In this document: positions 17,498-45,426 of the stretch, piece by piece | Position numbering within the stretch: the first letter of the stretch is position 1 | Layout of the letters: each line of letters opens with the position of its first letter | Virus record (IMG/VR): IMGVR_UViG_3300035703_000016 | Location: 64,001 to 128,000 of that record | Origin: a virus | Length of the DNA: 64,000 nucleotides | Strand: one strand, 5' to 3' | Position numbers and translations under genes: made by a program | Notes under the pieces: model-generated | Database searches by the model: none | What the model was told of the DNA's origin: nothing | What the model saw: the letters and a program-made list of their open reading frames with translations, nothing else

Positions 17498-19207
17498 TTA
17501 TTTTAAACAACAAACACCGCTCTGAAGACATATTATTTCAGAGATTAGTTTACTTGTTCTTGAATACTTATCGCTATATTCTATTGACTCTCTTAATCCA
17601 GGTTTTAATTCTGGTTTCATATAAGATCCAAAGTTACTTGGTGTACTTACAAAATCCCAACATATAATATCAAGATCATCTTCTACTTGTACAAGACCTT
17701 CACCTATTTGACTAACAGAGCCCATAGCTCTAGAAGATATGCCGATAGTTAATCCATTTTCAAATAATGTCTTTAATATATTTCCAGATGGAGTTGGAAG
17801 AATTTCTACTTTTCCATATAAATCTTTTCCATCCCACCAACATTCTACTATATTATGACTTACATTTTTTAAATTTATTGTTGAACAATTCCCAGATAAA
17901 AAAGATAATCCTTGATCTTTACAATAAAAGTTTCCGTTTTTGACTGTTACGCAATGAACAGTATCATCATAGTCGATTTCTTCTATTTTTAAAAATCTTT
18001 TATCTAAACATATTCCTTTTGTTTTTTTAGACCATAATCTATATAAAGTTTTTTTATTTTTTATTTCTATAGTATGTCCAGCATATTCATAATCTTTTTT
18101 GCTTATTTGTTCTTTTATATCCCCGAATTTTCCCGTTTTTATAAGAATTTCATTAAAATCTTCAATTAATTTATAGCTAACTGAAAATATAGAAGATCTT
18201 GTATTATTTGAAGTTGTAACATCTGACCCGTCTCCTAATTTAAACCAATCATACATTGCTAATAAAAGATCTGATGACGCATTCTTGTAATTATCTGGAA
18301 TATGTTTTGTATAAATATTTCCAAATTTTGATAAATATTGAGATAATCTTTTATCATTTGTTTGTACGACTGAGCATTTTTCAGTTTTTGAATATACTGC
18401 CCAATCTATGTCGTTACTCATTTTTCCTATCAGATCCATAAACTTATCTAGCTTATGTCCTTTATTTTGAGAAATTGTAACTACTCCAGTTTTACTAATT
18501 CCGCCTTCAGCTAAATAAAATCCTAAAAATGAAAACCAATCTATAGCTTTTATTACTAGAGGCTTACTATATTTTTCTCTATATATTTTAGGAACTCGAC
18601 TATTTTTTGAATATTCGAATGTTGGAATTGTTATAAAATCAAAATTTACTCCAGTCCACTTACCTATAGATTTTGGAATTTGATGATGAGAATAACTTTT
18701 TTTCTCATCATAAATATCTTGTATTGTTGCTTCTTCATACTTATCGTACCTATCTCTCAATATGAATCTATGATTAGGAGTTACTACTGTATCTATAGAT
18801 TTGCCTTTTAAAGAAAATGCTTTTCCTTTATATGGTTTATTTATTACTCTTTCTATAGGATTCCATTCATTTTGATTAGTCTCAGTATTTAAAGTCAATA
18901 CATTTTCTCCTACCGTAACGTCTTTGATATACTTCCATCCCGAATTTGTCAAAATCATAGCGCTCGGACGTAGGCACTCCGGATGATCTAGTTCTCCAAA
19001 TGCTCTTTTTTCACAAATTGGGCCATCTATATATTTTTGAACTTGAGATCTAAGTATATCAAATGGATATATTCTCCTATTAGCGTTAGGAACATCTGCA
19101 GATGACAATTTACCAATTACCATTAAATTGCCTCCACGAGATAATCCTTCTTTAAGATTACTAAGTGGTTTGAAAGTAGAATATTCTATTAATAATTGTT
19201 TACTCAT
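17498..19207 (-). CDS. gp21: prohead protease (T4 gp21-like) containing an intein
   Basis: N.N.RIYP, GELDHP, NLKNVSH, GISSRAMGS and WDFVSTPS motifs; about 206 aa after splicing. Confidence 0.93.
   Translation of the reverse strand: MSKQLLIEYSTFKPLSNLKEGLSRGGNLMVIGKLSSADVPNANRRIYPFDILRSQVQKYIDGPICEKRAFGELDHPECLRPSAMILTNSGWKYIKDVTVGENVLTLNTETNQNEWNPIERVINKPYKGKAFSLKGKSIDTVVTPNHRFILRDRYDKYEEATIQDIYDEKKSYSHHQIPKSIGKWTGVNFDFITIPTFEYSKNSRVPKIYREKYSKPLVIKAIDWFSFLGFYLAEGGISKTGVVTISQNKGHKLDKFMDLIGKMSNDIDWAVYSKTEKCSVVQTNDKRLSQYLSKFGNIYTKHIPDNYKNASSDLLLAMYDWFKLGDGSDVTTSNNTRSSIFSVSYKLIEDFNEILIKTGKFGDIKEQISKKDYEYAGHTIEIKNKKTLYRLWSKKTKGICLDKRFLKIEEIDYDDTVHCVTVKNGNFYCKDQGLSFLSGNCSTINLKNVSHNIVECWWDGKDLYGKVEILPTPSGNILKTLFENGLTIGISSRAMGSVSQIGEGLVQVEDDLDIICWDFVSTPSNFGSYMKPELKPGLRESIEYSDKYSRTSKLISEIICLQSGVCCLK
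17888..18976 (-). mobile_element. intein (363 aa) with LAGLIDADG homing endonuclease, in the prohead protease
   Basis: Begins CLRPSAMIL after ELDHPE; block B VTPNHRF; LGFYLAEG and WFKLGDG motifs; ends VHCVTV...LSGN followed by Cys. Confidence 0.9.
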
Positions 19208-26634: not shown

Positions 26635-27090
26635 TTATGCTTCTTCTTGAGGAGTTTCTTCTTTTTCTGACTGTGACGGTATTTCTTCAGATCTAGATCC
26701 AGACTCTTCTTCTGGACCTTGAGATTGAGTTTTTTGTCCGTATCTCTGTAGTCTTGATATTGCCATCGTAGCCCTTTGAACTTCTCCTAAATTCATAAGA
26801 TAATATCTCTTACCCAATACAGTCGCTTCATATGCTTTTCCCATGAATGTCATGAAAAAATATTGACCATTTTTTAAAAGAATTTTGAATGTTGTTGGCT
26901 TTCCTGACATTATAAATATCCCAGAAATATACTCTTTAAAAGTATTTCCCATTATTATACTCAGATTATTATGAAGTCTTTTGTACTTCTTTAATATATA
27001 TTTCATAGGATCAGCTTCAAATTCTGGATTTGATGGAGCTTCATTTATTTCTCTTAATAAATTTTTTAGTATGTCTGTTAGCTTTATCAT
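26635..27090 (-). CDS. hypothetical protein with MIKL-tag (putative internal head protein)
   Basis: N-terminus MIKLTDILKNLLREINE. Confidence 0.55.
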   Translation of the reverse strand: MIKLTDILKNLLREINEAPSNPEFEADPMKYILKKYKRLHNNLSIIMGNTFKEYISGIFIMSGKPTTFKILLKNGQYFFMTFMGKAYEATVLGKRYYLMNLGEVQRATMAISRLQRYGQKTQSQGPEEESGSRSEEIPSQSEKEETPQEEA

Positions 27091-27446
27091 TAGCTCATCA
27101 TTTGATTGAAAGTCTTAAAATTGAATTTAGAGTGCATCATCAAATTGTCATTATCTTTGAATTGATATAAATTTGCTCCATCTTTAGTAAATTCAATTTC
27201 TATTTTTGTTCTATTTTTAGGATAATAAACCATTCCGCCAGTTGTTATTTTAGTTGGATATAGATTATAGTTGACTTTTGCATATTTCCAAATATCGTTA
27301 ATTATCTTAGGAAGTCCTTGATATTCAACAAATTGAGCTATTACTGAACCATCCATTAATTGATCTTTATCGACTATGTATGATTCTTGATACTCTGTAT
27401 TAGGCTTCCAACCAATCTCTTTTAATATGTCTGCTAATTTTATCAT
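27090..27446 (-). CDS. hypothetical protein with MIKL-tag (putative internal head protein)
   Basis: N-terminus MIKLADILKE. Confidence 0.55.
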   Translation of the reverse strand: MIKLADILKEIGWKPNTEYQESYIVDKDQLMDGSVIAQFVEYQGLPKIINDIWKYAKVNYNLYPTKITTGGMVYYPKNRTKIEIEFTKDGANLYQFKDNDNLMMHSKFNFKTFNQMMS

Positions 27447-27462
27447 TACTTTTTTATAATTA

Positions 27463-30102
27463 TTATCTTATTAGAGTTACGTCTCCTTTTTCTATGTGTT
27501 GTTCTCCTTCGCATTCATATATTATTACCCAATAATATACTCCAACTTCTTGAATGATTCCTTTATAAGTTCCATCCCATCCTTTTGAAGCTAGTAATTT
27601 AGATGTGTAAACTTCTTGACCCCAACGATTAAATATACTAAATTGATGAATTTTAAATCTATCTCCAATTGGTCTGAACAAATCATTTAATCCGTCACCA
27701 TTAGGAGTAAAAGCAAGAGGTACATTAAATTTACAACACGATTTTGGGTCTATTTTAACTGAGTCCATACTAACGCATCCATGAGAAGACATAGCGTATA
27801 AAATTGCAGTTCTACTAGCGTCTATATATCCTTGAATATATGTCTGACTTGTTAAATCCTGATTATAAAAATAGTATATAGGTAACCATCTATAAACAAT
27901 ATTCTGTTTTGGATTTAGAGGAGAAAAGTTAATTTTATCTCCTATACACACTTCTTCATTAAATTCTGATATTCTAGCATCTGGATAATCTTGTACTTCA
28001 ATTAATTTAGAAAAAGTATCAGAATAGCAATACGTGTTTTTTACAACTAATTTAATATTATATTTTCCTGTATCTGGGTAGTGAAATGTATAAATGCCTT
28101 GAGCATATTCTGGAATATCTGCTAATAATGTGCTATCAAAATTCCAATAATACTCGATAACATTATTTTTTTGATTAGTCGCTAAAATACTAACAGTGTC
28201 TCCTTTACATATCTTACTTTTAGGATACTCGTCTATTTGCACTTCTGGTATTTTAATTACTTTTAAATTTAATGTAGATACTGAATCACATCCGTATTGA
28301 TTTATAAATTTTCTAGAGTAAACTCCTTCTTTATTATAGGAAATTCCTGCAAAATGAATAGTATCTCCAGAACATATAGAGTCATTTATAGTAGTTGACT
28401 GAGTTGGCAATATGGTGACTATTATTCTTATTGTAGAATCGCATCCATTAGTTGTATAAAATTTTACAGGATATATGCCCTCCGTATTATAAGCTATTCC
28501 ATCAAAAATATACTCCTCTCCTGGACATATCGATATTGGTTTGTTTATTGTATAAGTGGGGTTTACTATAACATTTATAGGAAGTCTAAATGATTCGCAT
28601 CCTGCAATAGTTTGAGTTACCCACCAAGTATATAACCCAGGAGTAGTCGTATTTGGAATAGGGGAGATTGTTGAGCCCACGCCTCCAGTTAAGCTAGTAT
28701 ACCACTTTAAAATGCCAATTCCTGCTACTCCAGAGCTCAATGGGGCAGCTATTTCATTTTGGCAATACATTGTATCGCTAACTACTGGATTTGCTGCTAA
28801 AATGGGAATTACAGTTAAAAGAAATTTTTTATTTAGTTTTCTACATCTTGTAGTATCTACTCCTGTAATTGTATAAGTTGTAATTGCTGAAATAGAAGAT
28901 AGTGTCAAAATAGTGCTCACTCCAGTAGTAGAAGAGAGACCTATACCAGGAGACCATGTCCATTTGCTCCAACTCCAATTTTTATCTGACGCGTTTTTAA
29001 TTTCTAAATTTACTAATCCTGATGATGATATGCATGTTGTTATCGTATCTACTGAATCAACTTCACTTCCATTTACTATCATTGTAGGTTCTGGAAATGC
29101 TGTATCTAAGGCGCCTTGCATAGAAGTAGATCCATTATAGATATATGCATAAGAAAATGTTGTACTATCTCCAGGAAGAATATTACATAGATTATATACA
29201 AGTCCTATTGCTATATCCGACGTTGCTCCAGTATTTACTCCATAATAAGATGTTCCTATTCCTGTTGCTGTTCCAGACCACATTGACACATATGTTACAG
29301 TCGTCGCTAATGGCCATGAATTGTAAACCATACATTTTGCTCTGTCATCTTTTGTCCCAAGTGATATTGAAGCAGCAGGAGATCCAGTAGAAGACGTTCC
29401 TCCAGTAGCTGTTGAAGACACCATTACTCTATGATAAAAATCATTTTGAAATCTTACTGTATTAATTGTAGAAAAAGATCCTCCCCAAGGTACGCTTTGA
29501 TCAGGATCGCATGATCTCATATAATATACATTATTCAACGTAGTAGTGCCAGTATTATATAATCTAACACTAATTACTAAAGCAGACGAAAGCGTGTCTA
29601 CTCTATACTCTTTTCTTATTTGTAACTGCCCTCCTAAAAAAGATCCAGACCAATCTCCTGTTATTTTTCCACTAGAATTTAAATAAGAAATCCAATTACC
29701 TGTAGCTGGAACTAATCCTCCTGATAAATTACAATTTGAAGAATACGCCCATTCTCTAATTCCACTAATTTCTATTCCCCATCCTTCCCAAGGAGATCCT
29801 GGAAGAGTATAGTCTCCCATATAATTAGGAGTACCTATAGTCCATCCATCTAATCCAAAATCATATACAGATGCTAATAGACTAGAAGATGAACCTCCAC
29901 ATAAAAAAACTGGACCACCGGTTCTCGGATGATATCCAGCCGGAGCAGCTACTCCTGATCCTAAAGACGCATTTGCTTGTGCTCCGATTTCTAAATATTT
30001 TCCTTGAAGAAATAGATTACCAGACACGATCTGTGAATTTGATTTTAAAACGCTAAATATAAGCGTTAGCACTACTAGAATTGCAAATTTTAAATTTTTC
30101 AT
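27463..30102 (-). CDS. secreted adhesin-like protein with signal peptide, Ig/PKD-like domains and T9SS type-B (gliding motility-associated) C-terminal sorting domain
   Basis: Sec signal MKNLKFAILVVLTLIFSVLKSNS-Q; CTD VPLAFTPNGDGLND.F...IFNRWG..VY...GWDGT...GVYYW...KGDVTLIR; GCDS repeats. ATG 30102 preferred over TTG 30108. Confidence 0.9.
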   Translation of the reverse strand: MKNLKFAILVVLTLIFSVLKSNSQIVSGNLFLQGKYLEIGAQANASLGSGVAAPAGYHPRTGGPVFLCGGSSSSLLASVYDFGLDGWTIGTPNYMGDYTLPGSPWEGWGIEISGIREWAYSSNCNLSGGLVPATGNWISYLNSSGKITGDWSGSFLGGQLQIRKEYRVDTLSSALVISVRLYNTGTTTLNNVYYMRSCDPDQSVPWGGSFSTINTVRFQNDFYHRVMVSSTATGGTSSTGSPAASISLGTKDDRAKCMVYNSWPLATTVTYVSMWSGTATGIGTSYYGVNTGATSDIAIGLVYNLCNILPGDSTTFSYAYIYNGSTSMQGALDTAFPEPTMIVNGSEVDSVDTITTCISSSGLVNLEIKNASDKNWSWSKWTWSPGIGLSSTTGVSTILTLSSISAITTYTITGVDTTRCRKLNKKFLLTVIPILAANPVVSDTMYCQNEIAAPLSSGVAGIGILKWYTSLTGGVGSTISPIPNTTTPGLYTWWVTQTIAGCESFRLPINVIVNPTYTINKPISICPGEEYIFDGIAYNTEGIYPVKFYTTNGCDSTIRIIVTILPTQSTTINDSICSGDTIHFAGISYNKEGVYSRKFINQYGCDSVSTLNLKVIKIPEVQIDEYPKSKICKGDTVSILATNQKNNVIEYYWNFDSTLLADIPEYAQGIYTFHYPDTGKYNIKLVVKNTYCYSDTFSKLIEVQDYPDARISEFNEEVCIGDKINFSPLNPKQNIVYRWLPIYYFYNQDLTSQTYIQGYIDASRTAILYAMSSHGCVSMDSVKIDPKSCCKFNVPLAFTPNGDGLNDLFRPIGDRFKIHQFSIFNRWGQEVYTSKLLASKGWDGTYKGIIQEVGVYYWVIIYECEGEQHIEKGDVTLIR

Positions 30103-30113
30103 AATCAATTATT

Positions 30114-30446
30114 TTAATTAGATGATACTTCACTTACATACTGAGCGACACTGTTCATATAATCACTAGCTAATGTGATATAAGCAGATACCCATCCAGG
30201 TAACTCAGTTCCTTCTTCTATAATATTATAAATTTTTGAAGAATTAGATATTAAACTTTTGAGTTCTCCTTTTGCCATAGTGGCTTCATGATCTTGAGAA
30301 GGTTGTCCAAATACTTCTTCTGACACGTCCTGCATTTGTAAAGAAGGCAACATTGAAGTTATTCTTTTTTCATTTCCATAAGATATTTCTGGAGTTTCAT
30401 TTGAATTTGGAGTAAATTGCTCAACTAGAGACAGTAATTTTATCAT
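30114..30446 (-). CDS. hypothetical protein with MIKL-tag
   Basis: MIKLLSLVE; C-terminal DHE..MA..EL...LP.WV..IT.A.DY helical hairpin. Confidence 0.55.
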   Translation of the reverse strand: MIKLLSLVEQFTPNSNETPEISYGNEKRITSMLPSLQMQDVSEEVFGQPSQDHEATMAKGELKSLISNSSKIYNIIEEGTELPGWVSAYITLASDYMNSVAQYVSEVSSN

Positions 30447-30447
30447 T

Positions 30448-31407
30448 TTAGATCATTTTTGCATAATTAAATAACTGTGTAGGATAAATTCCAAATCTTG
30501 CATCTTTTACTCCTTGTTGATTTACAGATTTCCTATATGATACTCCTAAAATTGGTTTGTATTTATCTGGAGGAACTTCTGGATATGTCCAAACTATTTG
30601 CTTATTTGATTGAGCTTTTATCTCATATAAAGTATTGCTTACTTTTACAAGAGTCATTGCTCCAACCACAACTAATTGAACTTTATTTAATCCAAAATTC
30701 TCATCTTTACCGTAAACAGCTTTTACCATTAATTCTTCATCAGATATTTCAGATTTATAAGCAGTCTTTGGTTGCATTTGTCCTTGAGTAAGTTTATTTA
30801 CTTTTTTTATAAATTTACTTACATCCGCATAATCCAATAAAGATGCAACTCCACTATATTGCTGATACTTATCATAATCTTTGTGAGATATAAAAATTAC
30901 GTCTTCTCCTTTATCATTTTTAAGAATAAAGTCAGCCTTTGGATTAGCTGTTGGTTTCCCTCCAGAAACTATGTTTTTATAAATTTTTCCAGCTATTCTA
31001 ATATTTACACTTCCTCCAGCTTCTTTGATTTGATTTAAAAATTCTGATAATGTTCTATCTTCTATCCCCATCCCCCTAGCAATCTCTTGACCGCCAAAAT
31101 CAGAAGTTTTCTCTAATTTTCCAAGTAAATAAGATTCTCCATTTTTATCAAAAAACGGAATTTTTAATAAACTTTTATAGTCTTTATCCGTTAATTTTTG
31201 AATAAAATCTTTACTTTTTATTTTATCGACTACTATGTCATCTCCGCTAGTCAGTCTTAATGACTTATTTGAATTTATTAAACTTAGTAGAACTTCTCCT
31301 CTATCAGATAAATTTTTTACTTTTGTATCTTTTGCTAATGTCCTTGGAGTTAAATTTCCCTTTTCATTAAGCTGAATACTATTATATATTTCAATTAGCT
31401 TTATCAT
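30448..31407 (-). CDS. putative PD-(D/E)xK nuclease-fold protein with MIKL-tag
   Basis: MIKLIEIYNSIQLNE; E...PKADF...FISHKD...QQYSG pattern; motif at 31419-31427. Confidence 0.5.
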   Translation of the reverse strand: MIKLIEIYNSIQLNEKGNLTPRTLAKDTKVKNLSDRGEVLLSLINSNKSLRLTSGDDIVVDKIKSKDFIQKLTDKDYKSLLKIPFFDKNGESYLLGKLEKTSDFGGQEIARGMGIEDRTLSEFLNQIKEAGGSVNIRIAGKIYKNIVSGGKPTANPKADFILKNDKGEDVIFISHKDYDKYQQYSGVASLLDYADVSKFIKKVNKLTQGQMQPKTAYKSEISDEELMVKAVYGKDENFGLNKVQLVVVGAMTLVKVSNTLYEIKAQSNKQIVWTYPEVPPDKYKPILGVSYRKSVNQQGVKDARFGIYPTQLFNYAKMI

Positions 31408-31428
31408 TTTTATTTTTATATAAATATT

Positions 31429-32028
31429 TTATTTTAAAATAGAGTAATACTGATTAAAATGTTTTATTCTATCATTAATTCCAATTATTCCACCATTAAC
31501 TCTTTTAGTAATTTTTGTTATAGTATCTGTAGTAGATCCTTCATCAGCAATCTTATGAAGTCCATTTATTGTAAAAAACCACGCAGCGGATGCAAGAGGG
31601 TACTTAGTAGAAACCAGATCTGGATTGGACACACAGTCTTCATTGATGGATTCAGAAAATGCTCTATAATTGTTTTTACCTGTTAATTGGATAAAGCCCC
31701 TTCCTCTATATTTATATCCGTCTCCAGAATTTTCAGGACCATTTCCCATTCTACCTCCATAAACCAAATTTGCTATTTTTTCTGGTTTTCTTTCATACTG
31801 AATTGCCTTTTCTACTGTAGGAAAATATTTTTTAAAAGTCGTAAGTAGTCCTTTTGTATTATAGTTCAGATTTTCATTTAAAGATTTAAATCCTCCAGAT
31901 TCATGACCAGCTTGGGCTAAAAAATGAGAGAGTCTTAAAGGAGTATTTATCTCGAATTTTTCAATCACGTTTGGAAGCATTTTAATTACAGAGTCTGGAA
32001 TATGACCTTTTAATTTCTCTAAGTTCAT
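31429..32028 (-). CDS. glycoside hydrolase family 19 endolysin
   Basis: HFLAQ..HESGG, ENLNY, DGYKYRGRGFIQLTGKNNY, SAAWFF and TKRVNGG motifs. Confidence 0.92.
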   Translation of the reverse strand: MNLEKLKGHIPDSVIKMLPNVIEKFEINTPLRLSHFLAQAGHESGGFKSLNENLNYNTKGLLTTFKKYFPTVEKAIQYERKPEKIANLVYGGRMGNGPENSGDGYKYRGRGFIQLTGKNNYRAFSESINEDCVSNPDLVSTKYPLASAAWFFTINGLHKIADEGSTTDTITKITKRVNGGIIGINDRIKHFNQYYSILK

Positions 32029-32492
32029 GATTTTACTAATTTTGTTTTATCAGAAAAAATAACTTTTCTTACAGCAGTTACTTTCTTAACTTTTTCTTTT
32101 ATAGATTGAATAACACCATCGTTAAAAGTTTCAAATGGAGCTGGATCTATTTTTATACTAATGTCAACAACATACTTTTTTAATTTTTCAGCAGAAGGTT
32201 GTCTATTGTTTGTTACTCTAACTACAGTAATTCCAGCTATTGCTCTAATATCAGAAAGAATATCAGCTAAAGATCTCCTTGTAGTATCTGCTATAAGTTG
32301 CCCTTCAATTTGATATATTTTTGGATTGTTAGTCTCTTTTATTGAATTTATTTCTTTAGCAGATTTTACAGCTTTTTTATAGGCATCACTTCCTTTTCTT
32401 GCAGGTTTTTCTCCTCTTTCTCTTTTAGCTTGGATATTTGCCCAAAGACCTTTTCTTTTTATTTCTTGAAGTATGCTAATTAGCGATATCAT
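32025..32492 (-). CDS. hypothetical protein with MISL..ILQE tag
   Basis: MISLISILQE followed by a basic GLWANIQAKRERG module and a ferredoxin-like C-terminal region. Confidence 0.55.
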   Translation of the reverse strand: MISLISILQEIKRKGLWANIQAKRERGEKPARKGSDAYKKAVKSAKEINSIKETNNPKIYQIEGQLIADTTRRSLADILSDIRAIAGITVVRVTNNRQPSAEKLKKYVVDISIKIDPAPFETFNDGVIQSIKEKVKKVTAVRKVIFSDKTKLVKS

Positions 32493-33720: not shown

Positions 33721-34146
33721 CTATTTATTTTTTGATAATAGACATTTAATTATATTTTCAGATAAAATATCTTCACTATCTTTTTTTATTTTTGAATAGT
33801 CGTCAACTCCAGTTACAACTTTTCTAAATAAAGGCTTTTTATTTACAGCGTCTAAAACAATTATTTCACATCCATCTTTAACTTTCATCCATAATTTACC
33901 TTTATAAGAAGTATCAACGTCTTTTACAATGATCATATTTGTTTTGATCCCACCTTTTGCTTTAATAGCTTCAATCATCGTGGCATCAAAGTTTTTAGAT
34001 AATTGAAATTCGTCTGATCTATTTTGTCTAATAGCGTAGTGAATTGTGCCTTTCGGATCTTTTGCATTTTTAAATTCCAAAAATTTAATTTTGCCTTCTT
34101 TTGTGTCTACCCAAGACATTGGTATTTTAGTAGCATATACATTCAT
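33721..34146 (-). CDS. hypothetical protein
   Basis: ORF track; tight packing with neighbours. Confidence 0.55.
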   Translation of the reverse strand: MNVYATKIPMSWVDTKEGKIKFLEFKNAKDPKGTIHYAIRQNRSDEFQLSKNFDATMIEAIKAKGGIKTNMIIVKDVDTSYKGKLWMKVKDGCEIIVLDAVNKKPLFRKVVTGVDDYSKIKKDSEDILSENIIKCLLSKNK

Positions 34147-35754: not shown

Positions 35755-36117
35755 TTATTCGTATATATTTTGATGTAATTCTCCAAATTTTCTCATTATT
35801 ATTCCAGCAATTTCATTTGCTTGATTTTCTATTTCTGAACCAGTTTGACCTGAATCTGGTTTTAATAAACCTAATTCATTTTGTTTATGATGAGTCATTT
35901 CATGAGCTAGAGTTCTCATACAATCTACTATATGTCTATCTCCAATATAAATCACTATAGAACATAATTCACTATTATATTGACCAAAAGATTTATTTTG
36001 TTGAGACCATTTATTGTCTTTTATAAATTGTATTTTTGGTAATTTTTGTATTCCAATTACAGATTTACAAAATTTTATAAATTCAAGAAGTGTTTTCGCT
36101 TTATTTTGTATGTCCAT
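35755..36117 (-). CDS. zincin-like metallopeptidase
   Basis: RTLAHEMTHHKQ (HExxH) with downstream E.EAN-like motif (ENQANE). Confidence 0.7.
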   Translation of the reverse strand: MDIQNKAKTLLEFIKFCKSVIGIQKLPKIQFIKDNKWSQQNKSFGQYNSELCSIVIYIGDRHIVDCMRTLAHEMTHHKQNELGLLKPDSGQTGSEIENQANEIAGIIMRKFGELHQNIYE

Positions 36118-36119
36118 TT

Positions 36120-38567
36120 CTATCTTTTTATAGCTCTATTTGCAGCAGTAAATCCTGCTCTATTTACTAATTTAATAGTACCTTTTGAATTAGAAATTAC
36201 ATAACCTTCTCCTCCTTTTATATCTCCAATATTAGCTTTTATGTCTGATTGTTGTGAATCTAATTGTTCTACTATTTGATTTTTTACATCCATTATTTTA
36301 GAGACTATATCAAATATTTTTAAAATTGATTCTCTATTCTGTTCTATATATTTCTCTAAATTTATTTTTTTAGATGAAGATATTGATTCTTTTTTTACAT
36401 AGTCTAAAAAATCTTTACCTAAATTTTTACTGTCTCCAGCTTTTGAATTATTGTATTTATACATTAAGTCTGGGAGATCCGATATTTTTTTAGATGATAA
36501 AATTGATTTATTTAGTGTTGAATCTATGTTGGATGCTTTTGATTTGATGTCTGACATTGCTGATTTAATAGCTCCTGTATTTATTTTTGGAGGAGTAGTA
36601 ACAGAAATAGGAGGTACTACTAATAAACCAAATTTGTCTGAAAATTCGTATTGATCTATATCTTTTATAGAAGATTCATTTCCTGAAAAATCCATAAATC
36701 TATGAATAACAACTCCAGTTTTACTTTTTTCAATTTGTTTACCAAGTTCGCTATTTTTAGAAATTGAGTAAGTTGTTATATTTGGCTTAAATACAAAATT
36801 TCCATCTACTACTTCAGGAGTCGTTTGATATAATAAATCCCCCTTAAAATATCCCTTTACAGATTTAGGAACTGATTTTTCAAAAATACTAAAAATAGAT
36901 CCCATACTTTTTGCAAATTTAGCATATGAACCATTCTTATCTTCTTTTCCTTTTAATCTACCTAAAAACATTTTTTCTAAATCTTCTCCTGATTTAGCTT
37001 TTCCATCGTATCCTTTTGCAGAAAATCCACCTTTATCAGTTAATATAAATTCACCATTTTCATTTCTTCCAAATATTATAGCTGGAGATCCATCCCACTT
37101 TATTGTTAAGTCTTTTGTATCTTTTCCTAATCCAGCTAAAATAGATAAAGCGTTTAATGCTCCTTTTGATCCTTCCCAAAATATTAAATCTTCTGGATGC
37201 TGAATTCTAGATTCTGCTGCTTCAGTCAAAATATTTTCATTTATCGTTTTAGGTAGATCTAAATTCTCTTTTGAAAAATCCTCTCTAGCTTGAGTAACTA
37301 ATTTTTCATAATCTGATCTGTTTTTTATTGCATTTATAACTGTTTCAACTGTAGCTATGTCATCTCTGGTTTTTCCTTTTCCTAGAAGTAATTCAGCTAT
37401 TTTATTTGGTTCTTTAGATATAACTTCTCCGCTTTCTCTATTTATTAATCCATTTTTATAAGACCATTTCATTCCCTGAGCTTTAGCTATACTAGCTAAT
37501 AAAAGATGCCTATGCACGCCTTTAAACTTAGAAAATTCTGATCCTCCAGCCATAGAAAATTTCATCCATTCTGGATCTCCAAACATAAAGTCTGTTTGAA
37601 CAAATCCATTTGATTCATCTCCTTTTATTGGAGTTTTAAAATGAACACTATCTCCAGACTTTGATATATAAGACTTGTCATATCCAGATTTTTCTAAAAT
37701 TTTTATTAAAGATTCTTTACTATATTTTTTTACATCTACAGCGAGATCTAAATCACCGCTTGTATCTTTTTTTCCAGTAGTACCAAGCATATTATCTTCT
37801 AAAGAAAGACCTGTGATTTTTTCCAACCATTTTACTGTAGGAATCACGTCTGCTCTATTTATTCTTTGAGTACCAGAATCTCCGTTACTTGATTTAAATA
37901 CGTTTCCTCCTTCAAAAATTAAAGTTTTTAATAATGTTTCAAAAAATAATCTATTTTCTTTTAAAACTTTTGGAGGATTTGTAAATTTACTCTTCAGCAT
38001 TTTTGCTATTTTTGGATCATACCAACCAAAGATAGACATAAAAAGTTTTTTATATTCTTCTTCTGATACATCAGCAGTAAGAGCTTTTCTTACATTAGTT
38101 CCACTCATTTCTCCTATGCCTGGAATATCTAAACTTATATGAGGTGCTACAATAAGATACCCATGTCTATCAAATCCTTCTAGATTTTTCTCATTACCTT
38201 TATAAGGTTTGAAATAAGGATCTGATCCGTCTTTTTTCTGTTTTAATGAGAATCTTGGATTTTCAGTCATGTCCTTTTCTCCAACCATAAAAACTAATGC
38301 AGTATCTTCAGGATTATATTTCTGAGTAATTTCAACTGCTTTATATGTATCTTTTACTTGAACTAGATTAGGACCATATCCAAATTTATCTATTATCATC
38401 CTCTTCTCTTCAAAATTAAGAGGACTTTTTTCACCATCTACTTTGTTAGTAGTAGCTATAAATGTATTATTTCCAAATTTAGATTTCAACCATTCAAATG
38501 ATAAAATATGATGACGAGACGGTGGTTGGAAACGTCCTGGATATATTGCGATGATATTTTTTGTCAT
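36120..38567 (-). CDS. three-domain protein: HIGH-superfamily nucleotidyltransferase + Pol-beta-like nucleotidyltransferase + KxDG ligase-like domain
   Basis: YPGRFQPPSRHH ... MSGTNVR; LGTTGKKDTSGDLDLAVD ... VQTDFM; HPED ... KWDGSPA ... GEGYV ... KLVNR. Confidence 0.65.
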   Translation of the reverse strand: MTKNIIAIYPGRFQPPSRHHILSFEWLKSKFGNNTFIATTNKVDGEKSPLNFEEKRMIIDKFGYGPNLVQVKDTYKAVEITQKYNPEDTALVFMVGEKDMTENPRFSLKQKKDGSDPYFKPYKGNEKNLEGFDRHGYLIVAPHISLDIPGIGEMSGTNVRKALTADVSEEEYKKLFMSIFGWYDPKIAKMLKSKFTNPPKVLKENRLFFETLLKTLIFEGGNVFKSSNGDSGTQRINRADVIPTVKWLEKITGLSLEDNMLGTTGKKDTSGDLDLAVDVKKYSKESLIKILEKSGYDKSYISKSGDSVHFKTPIKGDESNGFVQTDFMFGDPEWMKFSMAGGSEFSKFKGVHRHLLLASIAKAQGMKWSYKNGLINRESGEVISKEPNKIAELLLGKGKTRDDIATVETVINAIKNRSDYEKLVTQAREDFSKENLDLPKTINENILTEAAESRIQHPEDLIFWEGSKGALNALSILAGLGKDTKDLTIKWDGSPAIIFGRNENGEFILTDKGGFSAKGYDGKAKSGEDLEKMFLGRLKGKEDKNGSYAKFAKSMGSIFSIFEKSVPKSVKGYFKGDLLYQTTPEVVDGNFVFKPNITTYSISKNSELGKQIEKSKTGVVIHRFMDFSGNESSIKDIDQYEFSDKFGLLVVPPISVTTPPKINTGAIKSAMSDIKSKASNIDSTLNKSILSSKKISDLPDLMYKYNNSKAGDSKNLGKDFLDYVKKESISSSKKINLEKYIEQNRESILKIFDIVSKIMDVKNQIVEQLDSQQSDIKANIGDIKGGEGYVISNSKGTIKLVNRAGFTAANRAIKR

Positions 38568-38578
38568 TACTCTTTTGT

Positions 38579-38587
38579 TATAAATAT
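38579..38587 (-). promoter_or_regulatory. ATATTTATA late-promoter-like motif
   Basis: 11 nt upstream of the ATG at 38567. Confidence 0.55.
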
Positions 38588-38590
38588 TTA

Positions 38591-38741
38591 TTATTTTTTA
38601 TTAAGTATTTTAACTATTTTTTCTTATTTTAGTCATCTTAAAATAATCTTATAGCTAACTTTATGCTTAATTGAGCCTTCTTTTATTGACTCGAGTATTT
38701 CTACTGTTTCTATTATTTGTATAGATTTTTTGATAATTCAT
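38591..38741 (-). pseudogene. decayed homing endonuclease remnant
   Basis: MNYQKIY start, then after a frameshift IIETVEILESIKEGSIKHKVSYKIILR*LK* (NUMOD1-like) with stop codons. Confidence 0.4.
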
Positions 38742-38859
38742 AAAATTAAAAAAAGTATCAAAGAAGTAAACAATGTCACTACCATTGAATACTCAATGAG
38801 TCAATAATTTCATATTACAGTCAGTTAGTAGTGATAATTTCTTGTCTGTAATAAATATC

Positions 38860-41800
38860 TTAAGTATGATATACTTTAGAAAAACCAGAACTTTCTTTTG
38901 TAATTTCTATATGATTGTCAACTACATCTCTTATAGTATCAATATGAGAAATCATTATAATAAACTTAAATTGAGTTTTTAAATATTCTAATAATACAGA
39001 AATATTACTCATGTTACTTTGATCAAGAGCTCCAAATCCTTCATCTATTGCTAAAAAATTAGGTCTTGGTAGAGAAGTTATATTTATTAAAGAAGTTCTA
39101 ATTGCAAGAGTCAATATAAATTTTTCCATTCCAGAACTAAGTTCTATTGGCCATTTTCTAGATTCGTCATACTCAATATATGCATTTATATTTTTACCAT
39201 CTGATTCAATTGCTATTTTAAAATCAACTATTTGAGACAACACATTATTTACATCTTCTTGTATTCTTGGAATAATAGATGTAATTATATCATATGGTAA
39301 ACCATCTCTTCCAGTTGCTAAAAGATAATATTCATAATACTTATATTTTTCTTCTATTGATTTTAAATTACTAATACTCTTTTTTGAATTTTCAATTTCA
39401 ATTTCTAATAATTTAATATCTGTATTATATCTTATTATAGAATTTGACACGATAGATAATTTATTTTTCGATTCCTCTATCTCTTTTTGACATTCTAAAA
39501 CTTTATTTAAAATTTCTTGATTTGATTTTATTGCTGTTTCTTTCTTTTTATATTGATTTACTATATCTTCTATTGATTTTATAGATTCGGATGCCTGGTG
39601 TAGCTCCAGGGTTAGCCTATTGACGTTTGATTCTATTTTAAGAATGTCATTCTTTTTTCTAGACAAATTATTTTGTAAAATATCATAATTGTCAACGGTT
39701 TTTTTATATATTTCAATATTTTCTCTTATAAGTTTTAAATTGTCAACTACTGTTTTTGCTTCAATTTTATCATTTTCTATAGAGTCTCTTGTTTGTATTG
39801 CGTCTTTAACAAAAATATTATCCATGCAAAATTCACAATTTTCATCATACTTGAGATTTTCTAATTTTTTCATTTTCTCAAGTTTATTTTTTAAGTCTGC
39901 TTTTAGTTTTTCAACATATAAAGTCATTCTTTTTTCCTCTGCTTGTGTTTCTTGAAGTTGTTTTTTTAAATCTTCTATTTCTAAAAAATCATGTTTTAAA
40001 ATCTCAGATTGAATAGTTTCAGAATCTTTTTTAAGCTCTATTATTATATTTTTATCATTATTCAGATCTATATTTATTTTTTCTATTTTAGAAATGTATA
40101 GTTCTTTTTTTTCTTGTAATCCAGATATGTCTAATATTTTAGAATCTATTTGGAGTATTTTAGAATTTAATTTTATTAATTTATCATTCTGTTTTTCTAT
40201 TTTTGTCTCAATTTCCTTTTTTTCTTTTTCTAATTTTTTGTATTGAGAATGATAGACTTTTATTTTTTCTTCATTCTCTTGCAATTTAGTAAAATGATCA
40301 ACTTTTTTATACTCTTTTATTAATACAGAATATTCTTTTATTTCTTCGCTGGCGGTTAAATATAAATCTTCATATACTTTTATATCTAGAAATTGAGCAA
40401 GTAAATCTTTTCTATCAGATTGACCCATATCAATAAATCCAGTATTATTATTCTGCATCGACATACAAGTTAATATAAAATCCTCATAAGATCCTATTAT
40501 TTCTCTTATTTTTGCATTTGTACTAAATCTATCTTCTCCGTTTAAAGAAACTTTTACATCGTCTTCTCCTATATAGTAAAATTCTACATCTTGTTTTACA
40601 TTTTCTGATTTTGGTCTATAAGAAGCTTTTCTTTCAATTGTATAAGTTTTTCTATCTAATTCAAAATCTAATTTACAACTAAACTCTCTGGACTTATTAT
40701 TCATTACAAGTCCAGCTTTTGAAGTTTTTGAGCATTTATCAAAAAGACAATATACTAGAGCCTCTATACTAGAACTTTTTCCAGACGCATTTTGAGCAAA
40801 AATTCCATATATTCCTCCCATATTTGTAAAATCAATTACGTTTCCCTCTCCATAACTAAACATATTAGAAAATTCAAGTCTTTTTGGACTCCATTGAATA
40901 TTTCTAGTAACTTCTATTTTTGGAAGTTTATTGTTTATTGAAACATTTAATTCGCAAATTTTAGAAATGTCCTCTTTTTGTAAATTGTATTTACTTTTTA
41001 AATATTTTGCAAGTATATCATTCTGATAAGAAATATCTCTAACGTTTATAGCATTTGAATTAGAATGTGAAGTTATTCCAGAAACATCATTCATTATTTG
41101 ATGAGTAATTTCTATTATATTTCTTGTTTTTCTAATCTCAGACGCTATTTCTTTTATTTGAGAAGGAGGAGTATTTTTTGATCTTAATCTTAGATATAAA
41201 TTTTTTGGAAGATTGTCTGGAAGATCTAAATAAATTCCATTTTCTATATAGAGCGTGTAAAATGCTGTATCATTTTTAATTTGAATGTATTCTGCACTTC
41301 TTTTTTCTACATCCCACACAAATATTCCATGATCTAGACCCTCTGAATGACTTTGTTGAATCAATGAACCTGGATACCCAATTGTCTTTTTTTCATTTAA
41401 AAATTGAGTTTTATGAATATCTCCAAGAAGAGTCAAATCAAATCCATCAAAGTCATCTACACTTAAATTATAGCCAGATAAGAAAAACTCCCCCTCTGTA
41501 GATGAATTATTAACAGGACCATGAAAAAAACAAATTTTGTATCCTGATTCTACTTGATTTGCTTTTGTATAAGTTTTTACGTCATCAAATACAGACCAAT
41601 GAACAAAATTAATGTCTCCTATTTTGTAAACTCCACTATCTTTTAAATAAATAATGTTAGTATCCCCCATTGCATTTATAATAGGAGTTAAACTATCCAT
41701 TCTATGATTATTATTTAAATTTGCATCATGATTTCCTGGGATAATTATTGTAGGTAGTATAGATGACATCAACTTAAAAAAATGTTGAGTTTCTTCTACC

Positions 41801-41988
41801 AATTCTGGAGTAATATCTGTTTTAGAGTGCACAATATCTCCTGTGATACAAATTATGCTATCATCTGTTTTAGTCGACTTTATATAATTTGCTACTCTAT
41901 CAAAAACTCTTCTGTATTCTCCATGTCTTTTAAAGTTTCTAATATGAATATCAGATAAATGATATATTTTTTTAATAGCGCTTATCAT
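38860..41988 (-). CDS. fused SbcD/Mre11 nuclease - SbcC/Rad50 ATPase (T4 gp47-gp46-like)
   Basis: SDIH, TGD, PGNHD, LGDIH; Walker A QNASGKSS; CEFC hook; signature SSGME; Walker B IDEGFGALD; ISH. Confidence 0.92.
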   Translation of the reverse strand: MISAIKKIYHLSDIHIRNFKRHGEYRRVFDRVANYIKSTKTDDSIICITGDIVHSKTDITPELVEETQHFFKLMSSILPTIIIPGNHDANLNNNHRMDSLTPIINAMGDTNIIYLKDSGVYKIGDINFVHWSVFDDVKTYTKANQVESGYKICFFHGPVNNSSTEGEFFLSGYNLSVDDFDGFDLTLLGDIHKTQFLNEKKTIGYPGSLIQQSHSEGLDHGIFVWDVEKRSAEYIQIKNDTAFYTLYIENGIYLDLPDNLPKNLYLRLRSKNTPPSQIKEIASEIRKTRNIIEITHQIMNDVSGITSHSNSNAINVRDISYQNDILAKYLKSKYNLQKEDISKICELNVSINNKLPKIEVTRNIQWSPKRLEFSNMFSYGEGNVIDFTNMGGIYGIFAQNASGKSSSIEALVYCLFDKCSKTSKAGLVMNNKSREFSCKLDFELDRKTYTIERKASYRPKSENVKQDVEFYYIGEDDVKVSLNGEDRFSTNAKIREIIGSYEDFILTCMSMQNNNTGFIDMGQSDRKDLLAQFLDIKVYEDLYLTASEEIKEYSVLIKEYKKVDHFTKLQENEEKIKVYHSQYKKLEKEKKEIETKIEKQNDKLIKLNSKILQIDSKILDISGLQEKKELYISKIEKINIDLNNDKNIIIELKKDSETIQSEILKHDFLEIEDLKKQLQETQAEEKRMTLYVEKLKADLKNKLEKMKKLENLKYDENCEFCMDNIFVKDAIQTRDSIENDKIEAKTVVDNLKLIRENIEIYKKTVDNYDILQNNLSRKKNDILKIESNVNRLTLELHQASESIKSIEDIVNQYKKKETAIKSNQEILNKVLECQKEIEESKNKLSIVSNSIIRYNTDIKLLEIEIENSKKSISNLKSIEEKYKYYEYYLLATGRDGLPYDIITSIIPRIQEDVNNVLSQIVDFKIAIESDGKNINAYIEYDESRKWPIELSSGMEKFILTLAIRTSLINITSLPRPNFLAIDEGFGALDQSNMSNISVLLEYLKTQFKFIIMISHIDTIRDVVDNHIEITKESSGFSKVYHT

Positions 41989-43585: not shown

Positions 43586-44226
43586 AACAATTAACAGAAC
43601 AAGAATTAATTAGCAATGTAGAAAAATTCTATGATCTAATTAAAAAATATCTTCCAGATAATGAAAGAACAAAAAAATTAATAAAATTCTTTAAAGGAAT
43701 AGAAGTAACGCTGTTAACATCTCCAGCTTCCACTAAAATAGATCATCATAATTGTTTTGTAGGTGGTTATGTTGAACATGTCAATAGAGTAGTCGAAGCT
43801 GCTTTAGTTTTAGATAAAGTATGGGATAGATTTGGTCAAGTAAAGACGCATACTACAGAAGAATTAGTATTTTCTGCTATAGTTCATGATTTAGGAAAAT
43901 TAGGAACAAATGATCAACCGTTTTATATTCCACAAACTTCAGAATGGCATCAAAAAAATCAAGGCAAGTATTTTACTTATAATCCAGAAATTCAACATAT
44001 GAGAATTGCAGATAGAAGTTTATTTTATTTGCAAAGAGCTGGGATAGAAGTTAGTGAAAATGAGTATATTGCTATAAAAACCCATGATGGATTATTCGAA
44101 TCTGGGAATGAAGCATACTTAATAACTCATACTCCAGAATCAAAAATAAAAGGTAATTTACCACATATTTTACATCAAGCAGATTTTATGGCTTCTAATA
44201 TAGAAAATCAAATAAATAGATCATGA
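43582..44226 (+). CDS. HD-domain phosphohydrolase (YhaM-like)
   Basis: PAS...HH....GGYVEH, VHDLGK, THDG and LHQAD motifs. Confidence 0.85.
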   Translation: MKQLTEQELISNVEKFYDLIKKYLPDNERTKKLIKFFKGIEVTLLTSPASTKIDHHNCFVGGYVEHVNRVVEAALVLDKVWDRFGQVKTHTTEELVFSAIVHDLGKLGTNDQPFYIPQTSEWHQKNQGKYFTYNPEIQHMRIADRSLFYLQRAGIEVSENEYIAIKTHDGLFESGNEAYLITHTPESKIKGNLPHILHQADFMASNIENQINRS

Positions 44227-44414
44227 TAGCTAACTGTCAGTGTTGCGGAAAATCATCAGATACACGCCTTGGATTTTGTTTTGATTGTGTAGAATGTGAG
44301 TCTGTTTTAGTTGAGGGACTTGATATGAATGACAATGAAATTGAAAAATATCCTGGCTTGACAAACTCAATGAATAAACTTAAGTATATTTTGAAAAAAT
44401 TTAAAGTTATATAA
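44223..44414 (+). CDS. small Cys-rich (Zn finger) hypothetical protein
   Basis: CQCC...CFDC; ATGA overlap with the upstream gene. Confidence 0.55.
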   Translation: MIANCQCCGKSSDTRLGFCFDCVECESVLVEGLDMNDNEIEKYPGLTNSMNKLKYILKKFKVI

Positions 44415-44415
44415 A

Positions 44416-44688
44416 ATGTTGACAACATTATCTATAATAATTTGGCCAATAGGTATAATATTCTATATCATTTGGAATTTATTTAGTAAAAATGTGAGAC
44501 TAGAAGAAATGCTAAATAAACAAGAGACTTTTGTAAGATCTATTTTAAATTTAGCAGATAATATAGATAAAACAGCTATGAAAATAGATTCCACATTATG
44601 GGTATCTTCTGATCCAGAATTAAAAATGATGTTTGATGATATAAAAGCAATGCAAGAGCATATAAAATCATTTACTAATAAAATATAA
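44416..44688 (+). CDS. single-pass membrane protein with coiled coil
   Basis: N-terminal hydrophobic helix followed by heptads. Confidence 0.55.
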   Translation: MLTTLSIIIWPIGIIFYIIWNLFSKNVRLEEMLNKQETFVRSILNLADNIDKTAMKIDSTLWVSSDPELKMMFDDIKAMQEHIKSFTNKI

Positions 44689-44691
44689 ATA

Positions 44692-45426
44692 ATGACAGAA
44701 GAATCACTATATACCAAAAAAGGGACATTAAGAAAAAGAAAACCAAAAGTCAAAGTAGAATATTTTACTTTAGAAAATCAAAATGCTATTTTAAAATATC
44801 GAACTTTAAAAAATACTTTAGAAAAAGATAAATTATATAATGAAAAAATACACGATGCTTTATATAAGTTAGTCGAAAATATTATACACTCTTTTGGATT
44901 TTACTATACAGAAGTTGATAACTTAGAAGACTTAAAATATGAAGTTATATCATTTCTTCTTCAAAAAATACATCTTTACGACGAATCTAAAGGAAAAGCA
45001 TTTTCTTATTTTGGAACAATAACAAAAAGATATTTAATTTCTTATTGTCAAAAGAACTACAAAAAGATAATAGAAAAACAAGCTCTTCATAGAGTAGATA
45101 ACAATATAAATACTGTAGATAGTCTCATATTAGAAATACCTTCACCAGAATTAGATAGAGCTTCTATAATAGATGAATTAATTGAAAATATAGAAAAAGA
45201 CTTTGTAAGTATTTTTGATAAAGAAGATGAATTAAAAGCAGCAGATGCTATATTAGAAATACTAAAAAGACACGAAAATATAGATATATCCAATAAAAAA
45301 GCTCTATTTGTTTACGTAAAAGAAATAGCGGATGTTAAATCAACCTCCATTTCATCAGCAATAAGTAAATTAAAAGTAATTTATAAGAATATTCTAAATA
45401 GAAGAATTGAAAAAGATGATTTTTAA
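44692..45426 (+). CDS. phage late sigma factor (gp55-like / sigma-70 region 2)
   Basis: KLVENII, DLKYEVI.FL...YD..KGKAFSYFGTITKRYLI, resembling region 2 of gp55-type sigma factors. Confidence 0.7.
   Translation: MTEESLYTKKGTLRKRKPKVKVEYFTLENQNAILKYRTLKNTLEKDKLYNEKIHDALYKLVENIIHSFGFYYTEVDNLEDLKYEVISFLLQKIHLYDESKGKAFSYFGTITKRYLISYCQKNYKKIIEKQALHRVDNNINTVDSLILEIPSPELDRASIIDELIENIEKDFVSIFDKEDELKAADAILEILKRHENIDISNKKALFVYVKEIADVKSTSISSAISKLKVIYKNILNRRIEKDDF

Follow-up and report, generated by a model that had tools for sequence, protein, structure and literature searches.

Why should a virus string three nucleotide-transfer enzymes together in one polypeptide? The question is raised by an intact open reading frame (ORF) of 815 amino acids in the IMG/VR virus record IMGVR_UViG_3300035703_000016, the complete genome of a T4-like phage, 158,434 bp long, with direct terminal repeats and about 29% G+C. 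We analysed a stretch of 64,000 nucleotides of this record (bases 64001-128000), referred to below as the window, to which all positions refer unless the genome or another contig is named. The ORF appears to be built as 'beads-on-a-string' from what would be three self-contained enzymes, here called H, M and L from the N terminus onwards (Table 1).

That all three folds are correctly assigned we hold with high confidence, and the chain is, on sequence grounds, a plausible candidate for a polyprotein that is packaged. We infer its cleavage, packaging, substrates and biological role as follows. Inside the prohead the S77 protease of the phage would cut the chain after [LI]-x-E into the three enzymes, and the freed H, M and L would be delivered with the phage DNA, ready on arrival; M would then fill a short gap in a nucleic acid and L would seal the nick left after M filling. 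To judge from the modelled folds, it is somewhat probable that M and L act as such a fill-and-seal pair, on DNA or on RNA. Cutting at both junctions together with delivery from the head, which is suggested by sequence features, seems to us evenly balanced between true and false. The whole explanation, a three-enzyme fusion with a fill-and-seal pair that is cut in the prohead and delivered with the DNA, we put forward tentatively, a shade below that balance.

Three nucleotidyl-transfer modules and their pairing

Module H is, by its sequence, a HIGH-motif nucleotidyltransferase. It matches Pfam PF01467 (CTP_transf_like) with an E-value of 8.6e-6 and 26.4 bits, above the curated cut-off of 21, and also phrog_395, which PHROG labels cytidyltransferase. 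Its signatures are YPGRFQPPSRHH at residues 9-20 (PGRFQP..HH at 10-20) and EMSGTNVR at 153-160. Across 19 homologues of the same architecture the motifs PGRFQP..(R/K)HH and EMSGTxxR are invariant, with H19, H20, S155, G156, T157 and R160 among their residues, and the first motif reads H-H, not H-x-G-H. Searches of PDB sequences, with the single sequence and with two profiles, gave weak matches to PPAT and NMNAT (E about 0.04-0.1). At equivalog level H is not an NMN adenylyltransferase, scoring 13 bits against NCBIfam NF003787 where the cut-off is 449 (E 0.037). Stand-alone viral clusters of H are 180-196 amino acids long.

Module M is, by its predicted fold, a miniature family-X-polymerase-like enzyme made of palm and thumb only. 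Its AlphaFold (AF2) model has a predicted local distance difference test (pLDDT) score of 87.7. Foldseek returned 143 PDB matches at E<=1e-3 and, among the matches listed, all are family X (Pol lambda, Pol mu, Pol beta and PolX); in the VIA-wide comparison the top nine are likewise all family X, at Z 7.4-9.3 over 154-168 amino acids. Residues 10-194 of this predicted model align by VIA to Pol beta 140-335 (Z 9.3, root-mean-square deviation 3.7, 164 amino acids), and a thumb subdomain comparable to Pol beta residues 262-335 follows directly after the palm. Against the whole 174-amino-acid Pol X of African swine fever virus (ASFV) the model scores Z 8.4, with 156 of 176 residues aligned (VIA). 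TUTases, CD-NTases, poly(A) polymerases and CCA-adding enzymes, on the other hand, match the palm only, over about 90 amino acids and at Z 4.7-7.0. The aligned range of Pol beta begins at about residue 140, and M starts at the palm, without the 8-kDa lyase and fingers/helix-hairpin-helix parts, which are missing from ASFV Pol X as well.

The sequence of M carries the pattern G[ST]-x(8-12)-D-x-D with a third carboxylate, typical of a Pol-beta-type palm, as GTTGKKDTSGDLDL at residues 262-275 and VQTD at 323-326; no variation is seen at S270, G271, D272 and D274, and little or none at D326. Profile searches at this level are silent. PF14792 (DNA_pol_B_palm) and PF14791 (DNA_pol_B_thumb) have no match in the genome at E<=10, 58 M homologues searched against Pfam at E<=10 gave no PolX match and no Pfam family for M, and sequence and profile searches of the PDB returned nothing for M. 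An M profile run against 1.84 billion representatives found no bridge to PolX among the best 150 matches (down to E 1e-37).

Module L belongs to Pfam PF19782 (DUF6267), which it matches with E 9e-34, and it appears weakly but consistently, on its modelled fold, to belong as a diverged branch to the lysine-nucleotidylating ligase superfamily. Motif I is K490-W-D-G (490-493), and by pattern and canonical order we assign motif III to D577 (FKGDLLY), motif IV to E787-G788 (GGEGYV, with EGYV at 787-790) and motif V to K799 (IKLVxR, with KLV at 799-801). K490, D492, G493, D577, E787, G788 and K799 are invariant among 60 diverse sequences and also in a set of 61. The AF2 model (pLDDT 89.6) finds its best Foldseek match in the Trl1 ligase domain at a modest E of 0.022, with RNA and DNA ligases making up most of the Foldseek list. 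In VIA ligases and capping enzymes fill about 25 of the top 30 rows, including Rnl5 (Z 7.0), REL1 (6.2), T4 Rnl1 (6.1) and LigIV (6.0). The direction agrees, although the scores fall short of what the tool rates as safe. DNA ligases come within 1 Z unit of RNA ligases, so the fold of L cannot decide its substrate.

Two further structural traits set L apart. A helical bundle of about 110 amino acids (approximately residues 665-775) interrupts the chain between motifs IIIa and IV, and a RIQHxED helix is conserved at the N-terminal end of L. Only 16 residues follow K799, and the model shows a single helix past motif V, from which it follows that L has neither an OB domain nor motif VI; a chain that ends at motif V without an OB domain is the RNA-ligase style of architecture. 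When 61 L members were searched against Pfam at E<=10, only DUF6267 was found, apart from one member that matched PNKP_ligase at E 0.011. Sequence and profile searches of the PDB gave nothing for L, and we found no literature on DUF6267.

A preliminary description of the locus had proposed a HIGH-type nucleotidyltransferase at residues 1-195, a Pol-beta-like domain in the middle and a KxDG ligase-like domain at the C terminus. The PF01467 match of H, the family-X palm plus thumb found for M by Foldseek and VIA, and the DUF6267 match of L with its ligase-type fold at modest scores uphold these assignments, and all the motifs it quoted lie at the residues it gave, their codon coordinates having been checked. 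It had further suggested looking for homologues encoded as separate tagged genes with starts at E-GGN or E-A..RI.HPED; separate genes whose starts lie shortly ahead of E-GGN and E-(G/A)ARIQH were found, as stand-alone M and stand-alone L.

The modules are in fact widespread and freely combined. In the protein database the whole chain has more than 2,100 relatives, stand-alone M accounts for 2,637 clusters (about 241 amino acids, about 60% identity) and L-sized proteins account for 1,612, and the same three-domain architecture occurs in homologues with 44-78% identity to the 815-amino-acid ORF. Of the 355 proteins collected, 123 are L, 121 M, 43 M-L, 25 H-M-L, 25 M-L-H and 13 L-M, so that four fused orders exist. 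At E<=1e-3 a profile of M matches 1,201 representative clusters (representatives at 50% identity), and the M-L pair is common in marine and freshwater viromes, as thousands of 90%-identity clusters. Viral contigs carry M and L side by side, often as overlapping genes. One 260-kb contig (locus L010) has an M-L-H gene among capsid genes, and at locus L033 an L-M gene lies beside terminase and portal.

In the jumbo Agrobacterium phage Atu_ph07 (locus L003, 1986-3831) a 340-amino-acid KLDG protein overlaps the start of an M homologue, next to primase/helicase; it matches Pfam RNA_ligase weakly (E 0.0022) and represents an unrelated second ligase partner for M. Taken together with the adjacency and fusion of M and L, this partner argues that M plus a ligase is the conserved functional core. 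In phage YerA41 a family-X polymerase and a ligase have been proven to repair gaps as a pair (10.1101/2025.03.26.645540). Gene 181 of P-TIM40, which lies upstream of the cyanophage L gene, was considered as a diverged M and rejected (BLASTP E 2.0; hhalign probability 0.3%).

Junctions, leader sequences and the prohead protease

The modules are joined by two linkers that end LLKTLIFE(219)/GGNVF and TINENILTE(449)/AAES, the slash marking the candidate cut. The pattern [LI]xE[GAS] occurs at only two sites in the protein, E219/G220 and E449/A450, and both are module borders. As a count, two sites are what chance predicts (1.9); what is non-random is their position at both junctions and their conservation. 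E219, G220 and G221 are invariant in the 19 same-architecture homologues and E449 is invariant in three alignments (A1, A3 and A4), and across 228 starts of M the P1 residue is E in 224 and the P3 residue L or I in 217. Both glutamates fall where the models end and confidence is low, E449 within a stretch of pLDDT<50, and the stretches around them are, on these models, probably flexible.

Comparison with proteins that begin directly at a domain helps to place the motif. Among diverse M homologues 93 read [LIVMF]xE/GG, 7 read M/GG and 3 read neither; either of the first two arrangements would yield the same mature GG end, as cleavage after Glu predicts. The cyanophage L protein likewise starts M/AKNTH, without LxE. 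Since the motif is absent where a protein begins at the domain itself, it belongs to the leader and not to the fold.

A candidate enzyme for cutting at [LI]xE is encoded in the window, namely a prohead protease of the T4 gp21 family (PF03420, E 2.3e-21) whose ORF also contains an intein (Intein_splicing, E 1.6e-8; LAGLIDADG-like). Proteases of the gp21 family cut after Glu in [LI]xE. Given [LI]-x-E/[G/A] ahead of the modules and a gp21-type protease of the phage's own, the chain would probably be cut in the prohead.

The same motif joins other modules. In some chains of the M family NT5C, DUF5661, an amidoligase or the anti-Thoeris protein Tad3 (E 8.6e-29) is found as well, and the junctions there show this motif too. 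One metagenomic protein of 1002 amino acids (P0367) has the order H, DUF5661, Tad3, a KIDG/HEG ligase-like module and M; its junctions read INE/G, LTE/G and LLE/G, and three of its four such sites stand before Tad3, the second KIDG module and M. A known anti-defence protein thus rides in the same kind of string.

Leader sequences of a related type are found on whole proteins. Six unrelated ORFs in the genome, five in the window and a sixth at genome positions 44226-45173, start MI[KS]L..(I/L)L.E where 0.41 would be expected, and MI[KS]L leaders recur in relatives (loci L004-L012). By this sequence pattern the MI[KS]L start is an N-terminal tag common to several proteins of the phage, comparable to what T4 uses for capsid targeting, the T4 capsid-targeting sequence being MKTYQEFIAE (PMC8442874). 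Stand-alone L proteins carry a leader of 14-21 amino acids, M-[RK]-[FYL]-x-[ED]-[FIL]...[LI]xE, in 121 of 123 cases. ORFs flanking M or L genes (loci L009-L083) start M-[KR]-[ILVFM]-x-[DE]-[ILVF] in 114 of 806 distinct cases, with 0.9 expected (for example MKINELI, MRFAEIL and MKIKDIT); judged by its pattern, this leader class runs through entire gene clusters of many uncultured T4-like phages. Cyanophage H proteins start MRFLDFIKE/A or MRFRQFIIE/A, and mass spectrometry of purified virions has detected an H homologue (cytidylyltransferase) for both S-SZBM1 (PMC9146016) and S-CREM2 (PMC10665884).

After the cyanophage cytidylyltransferase a K/S/G-rich protein of about 455 amino acids is encoded (PTIM40_184, locus L001 7297-8664; SSZBM1_139, locus L002 6307-7680), and SSZBM1_139 was likewise detected in S-SZBM1 virions (PMC9146016).

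More broadly, many T4-like aquatic phages might load their capsids with enzyme polyproteins, strings of unrelated modules that are split at prohead-protease sites and form a repair and anti-defence kit entering the cell along with the DNA, a generalization that we regard as possible and more speculative than the account of the single chain. The modules of such polyproteins would be a mini-PolX, a new ligase family, a HIGH transferase, Tad3, a nucleotidase and an amidoligase.

Table 1. Features of the 815-amino-acid protein and related ORFs, with positions in the 64,000-nucleotide window
Feature	Position	Strand	Basis or remark
Whole ORF (P0001)	36120..38567, including stop codon	minus	intact, 815 amino acids
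Module H, residues 1-200	37968..38567	minus	PF01467, phrog_395, invariant motifs
Linker 1, residues 201-219	37911..37967	minus	ends L-I-F-E219 / G220-G221
Module M, residues 220-440	37248..37910	minus	AF2 model, Foldseek, VIA; candidate catalytic D272, D274, D326
Linker 2, residues 441-449	37221..37247	minus	ends I-L-T-E449 / A450
Module L, residues 450-815	36123..37220	minus	PF19782, AF2 model, Foldseek/VIA, invariant motifs
Prohead protease, T4 gp21 family (Peptidase_S77), with intein	17498..19207	minus	PF03420, Intein_splicing, phrog_207
Five unrelated ORFs starting MI[KS]L..(I/L)L.E	26635-27090, 27090-27446, 30114-30446, 30448-31407, 32025-32492	minus	block 26635..32492

Cut or uncut, DNA or RNA

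A number of observations weigh against a chain that is cut in the prohead, delivered from the head and active in filling and sealing. [LI]xE is a common tripeptide, present 9 times in the protein where 8.6 are expected. The preliminary description had likened the first linker to the MIKL tag, and this likeness did not survive scrutiny: a matrix built from 15 MIKL-type leaders singles out neither linker and gives residues 287-293 and 357-363, inside M, a higher rank than the junctions, so that only the [IL]-x-E ending is common and any resemblance beyond it is rejected. The protein begins MTKNIIAIYPGRF and enters the Rossmann strand at once, with H from residue 5 and no N-terminal leader, and a leader is absent in all 25 H-M-L homologues too. 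Just 2-3 peptides underlie the detection of H in virions (PMC9146016, PMC10665884), and the cyanophage L homologue is not among the listed virion proteins of S-SZBM1 (PMC9146016). Neighbouring genes are those of replication and recombination, both here (SbcCD, primase) and in cyanophages (gp43, UvsX, gp41), a neighbourhood that a cytoplasmic repair enzyme would also fit. Promoters allow no inference on the timing of the fusion gene, since the T4 late promoter TATAAATA lies within 60 nt of just 7 of 211 ORFs, the fusion gene not among them, and a scan for sigma-70 promoters gave 22 where chance predicts 21.1. As to the enzymes themselves, the structural scores of L are modest (Foldseek E>=0.02, VIA Z<=7.0) and M is assigned to PolX by its modelled fold alone.

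Much of this would be accommodated by an uncleaved, cytoplasmic, multifunctional repair enzyme whose three domains cooperate during replication or recombination and in which [LI]xE-G/A simply represents the conserved first residues of each domain, a reading that we think unlikely though well worth weighing. It would explain the replication and recombination genes beside the locus, the lack of a leader on the 815-residue protein and the failure of the MIKL matrix to match the linkers. A variable domain order is no obstacle to it, as bacterial LigD likewise varies in domain order, and PolX-ligase fusions do function as single chains, that of PgV-16T working in gap repair in this form (PMC5537341). 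It fares less well with the junctions, where the same motif stands ahead of modules as unrelated as Tad3, the second KIDG domain, M and L, is missing from the direct-start proteins and therefore lies outside the fold, and has its glutamates in low-confidence stretches. The leaders shared by the stand-alone forms and the presence of an H homologue in published virion proteomes also speak for the cut and delivered chain.

A different question is what the enzymes would act upon. We keep an RNA substrate in consideration because L, as RNA ligases do, lacks an OB domain, and a kit for RNA or tRNA repair, packaged or not, could be imagined in which L is an RNA ligase and M re-adds nucleotides, directed against anticodon nucleases or RNA-cutting defences. 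The chain end 16 residues past motif V is RNA-ligase-like, the best VIA and Foldseek rows for L are RNA ligases (Rnl5, REL1, T4 Rnl1 and Trl1), and the Atu_ph07 partner of M leans the same way with its faint RNA_ligase match, as does an Atlas neighbour cluster with RNA_ligase in 48% of members (score 0.77, a lead only). In other phages canonical DNA ligases occur alongside M-L, so L would do something else. We nevertheless think such a kit rather improbable, since M fits the family X DNA polymerases over palm and thumb (Z 9.3) and the CCA-adding enzymes and TUTases over the palm only, DNA ligases follow RNA ligases closely in the scores of L, the 815-residue protein contains no kinase or phosphoesterase module for end healing, and there are no tRNA genes in the 64-kb window. 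The fold of M slightly favours DNA as the substrate.

Two further proposals we consider very improbable. In one, the three modules form a set for nucleotide metabolism or against signalling, in which H remakes NAD+ in the manner of NMNAT and the targets of M and L are small nucleotides or defence signals and not polymers. The GRFQP..HH motif of H resembles archaeal NMNAT, weak NMNAT/Nudix and PPAT matches exist, anti-Thoeris Tad3 occurs in a chain of the same type, and phages are known to rebuild NAD+ (review PMC13728456). Against this, the NMNAT match falls far short of its cut-off, CD-NTases fit M on the palm only (Z 5-6), and the strict pairing of M with a ligase points to polymer ends. The other, to which we give still less credit, would make L the replicative DNA ligase otherwise missing from this phage and from cyanophages, PF01068 and PF01653 being absent from this complete genome, P-TIM40 and S-SZBM1. 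Three of four other viral contigs with M-L, incomplete ones, nevertheless encode an ATP-dependent ligase of canonical type (E about 1e-21 to 1e-23), and Atu_ph07 carries an NAD-dependent ligase; a replicative ligase would need neither a leader tag nor an obligatory PolX partner. Because canonical ligases coexist with M-L, we reject, as a rule for all M-L-bearing phages, that L is the missing replicative ligase.

The preliminary description had placed the three enzymes in RNA or tRNA repair or in NAD or signalling-nucleotide metabolism. Its three nucleotidyl-transfer folds stand, and its idea of a packaged polyprotein cut by the prohead protease finds partial support; of the roles, RNA repair keeps the small share of probability given above, and the palm-plus-thumb match of M together with its constant ligase-type pairing supports fill-and-seal better than NAD or signalling-nucleotide metabolism.

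Neighbouring genes, significance and known systems

Read on its own strand, the fusion gene is preceded by primase and a fused SbcD-SbcC nuclease and followed by small ORFs, endolysin and head/tail genes. The SbcD-like and SbcC-like subunits are fused into one ORF of 1042 amino acids (window 38860-41988, minus strand; phrog_100 and phrog_77) and are two genes at locus L033. Upstream of the fusion gene lies a non-coding gap of 292 bp (38568-38859), the largest of the gene block and very A+T-rich, to which no promoter could be assigned. Directly downstream a 120-amino-acid ORF (35755-36117, minus strand) contains an HExxH motif (LAHEMTHH) and matches DUF6782, a putative metallopeptidase family, faintly (E 0.079). 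Its position is kept in all close relatives, where it is 139-282 amino acids long, and it might act as a small protease or as the fusion's partner. Farther away, a 141-amino-acid ORF (33721-34146, minus strand) has a sub-threshold match to Tox-REase-3, a restriction-endonuclease-fold toxin domain (E 0.002), and the portal ORF (21675-24968, minus strand) contains an HNH-endonuclease insert.

Were the cut and delivered chain to prove right, the T4 internal-protein paradigm of small proteins trimmed once would be extended to multi-enzyme polyproteins cut inside the head, and a polymerase-ligase pair would join the short list of phage-injected enzymes. DUF6267 and the very large, unannotated M family (more than 1,200 clusters at 50% identity) would each gain a function, as two unrecognised families of injected cargo. 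Compact enzymes for biotechnology would follow as well, a PolX of about 220 amino acids and a ligase without an OB domain. What M-L does matters for the way in which abundant phages withstand DNA damage or host defence as they enter the cell.

Among known systems, the T4 internal proteins IPI, IPII, IPIII and Alt, cargo trimmed by gp21, resemble the present case in the S77 protease and the [LI]xE/[A/G] motifs found here, in the leaders of relatives (MRFxEF..LxE, MRFRQFIIE/A), which are like MKTYQEFIAE, and in the occurrence of H homologues in virions. They differ in being trimmed once, whereas the fusion, which has no leader, would be cut internally into three. The T4 cargo consists of small basic proteins and an ADP-ribosyltransferase; here it would be polymerase-like and ligase-like enzymes.

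PgVPolX of Phaeocystis globosa virus 16T likewise unites a Pol-beta-like core and a ligase module in one chain; its PolX core is fused to an NAD+-dependent DNA ligase, and gap filling and nick sealing have been shown for it (PMC5537341). PgVPolX is, however, a recognisable PolX with a LigA-type ligase and remains uncleaved, whereas M has no 8-kDa or fingers part, L is a DUF6267 domain with no ligase-family sequence match, the module order varies, and the junctions are of protease type. ASFV Pol X, which is paired with the ASFV DNA ligase, is like M a minimal palm-plus-thumb enzyme with a ligase partner; it shows no detectable sequence similarity to M, M has about 50 extra C-terminal residues, and L has no OB domain. 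Bacterial LigD is also a multi-enzyme chain for end repair, with an order that varies between lineages and domains that occur as separate genes too, but its polymerase is AEP primase-like, its ligase is canonical and bears an OB domain, and protease-type junctions and leader tags are absent.

Closest to L in structure are Naegleria Rnl5, T4 Rnl1 and Rnl2 and trypanosome REL1 (Z 5.8-7.0). These RNA ligases share with L the motif order I-III-IV-V, an EGYV-type motif IV and the lack of an OB domain; L stands apart from them in its inserted bundle of about 110 residues, in its RIQHxED helix and in having no sequence-level match to them.

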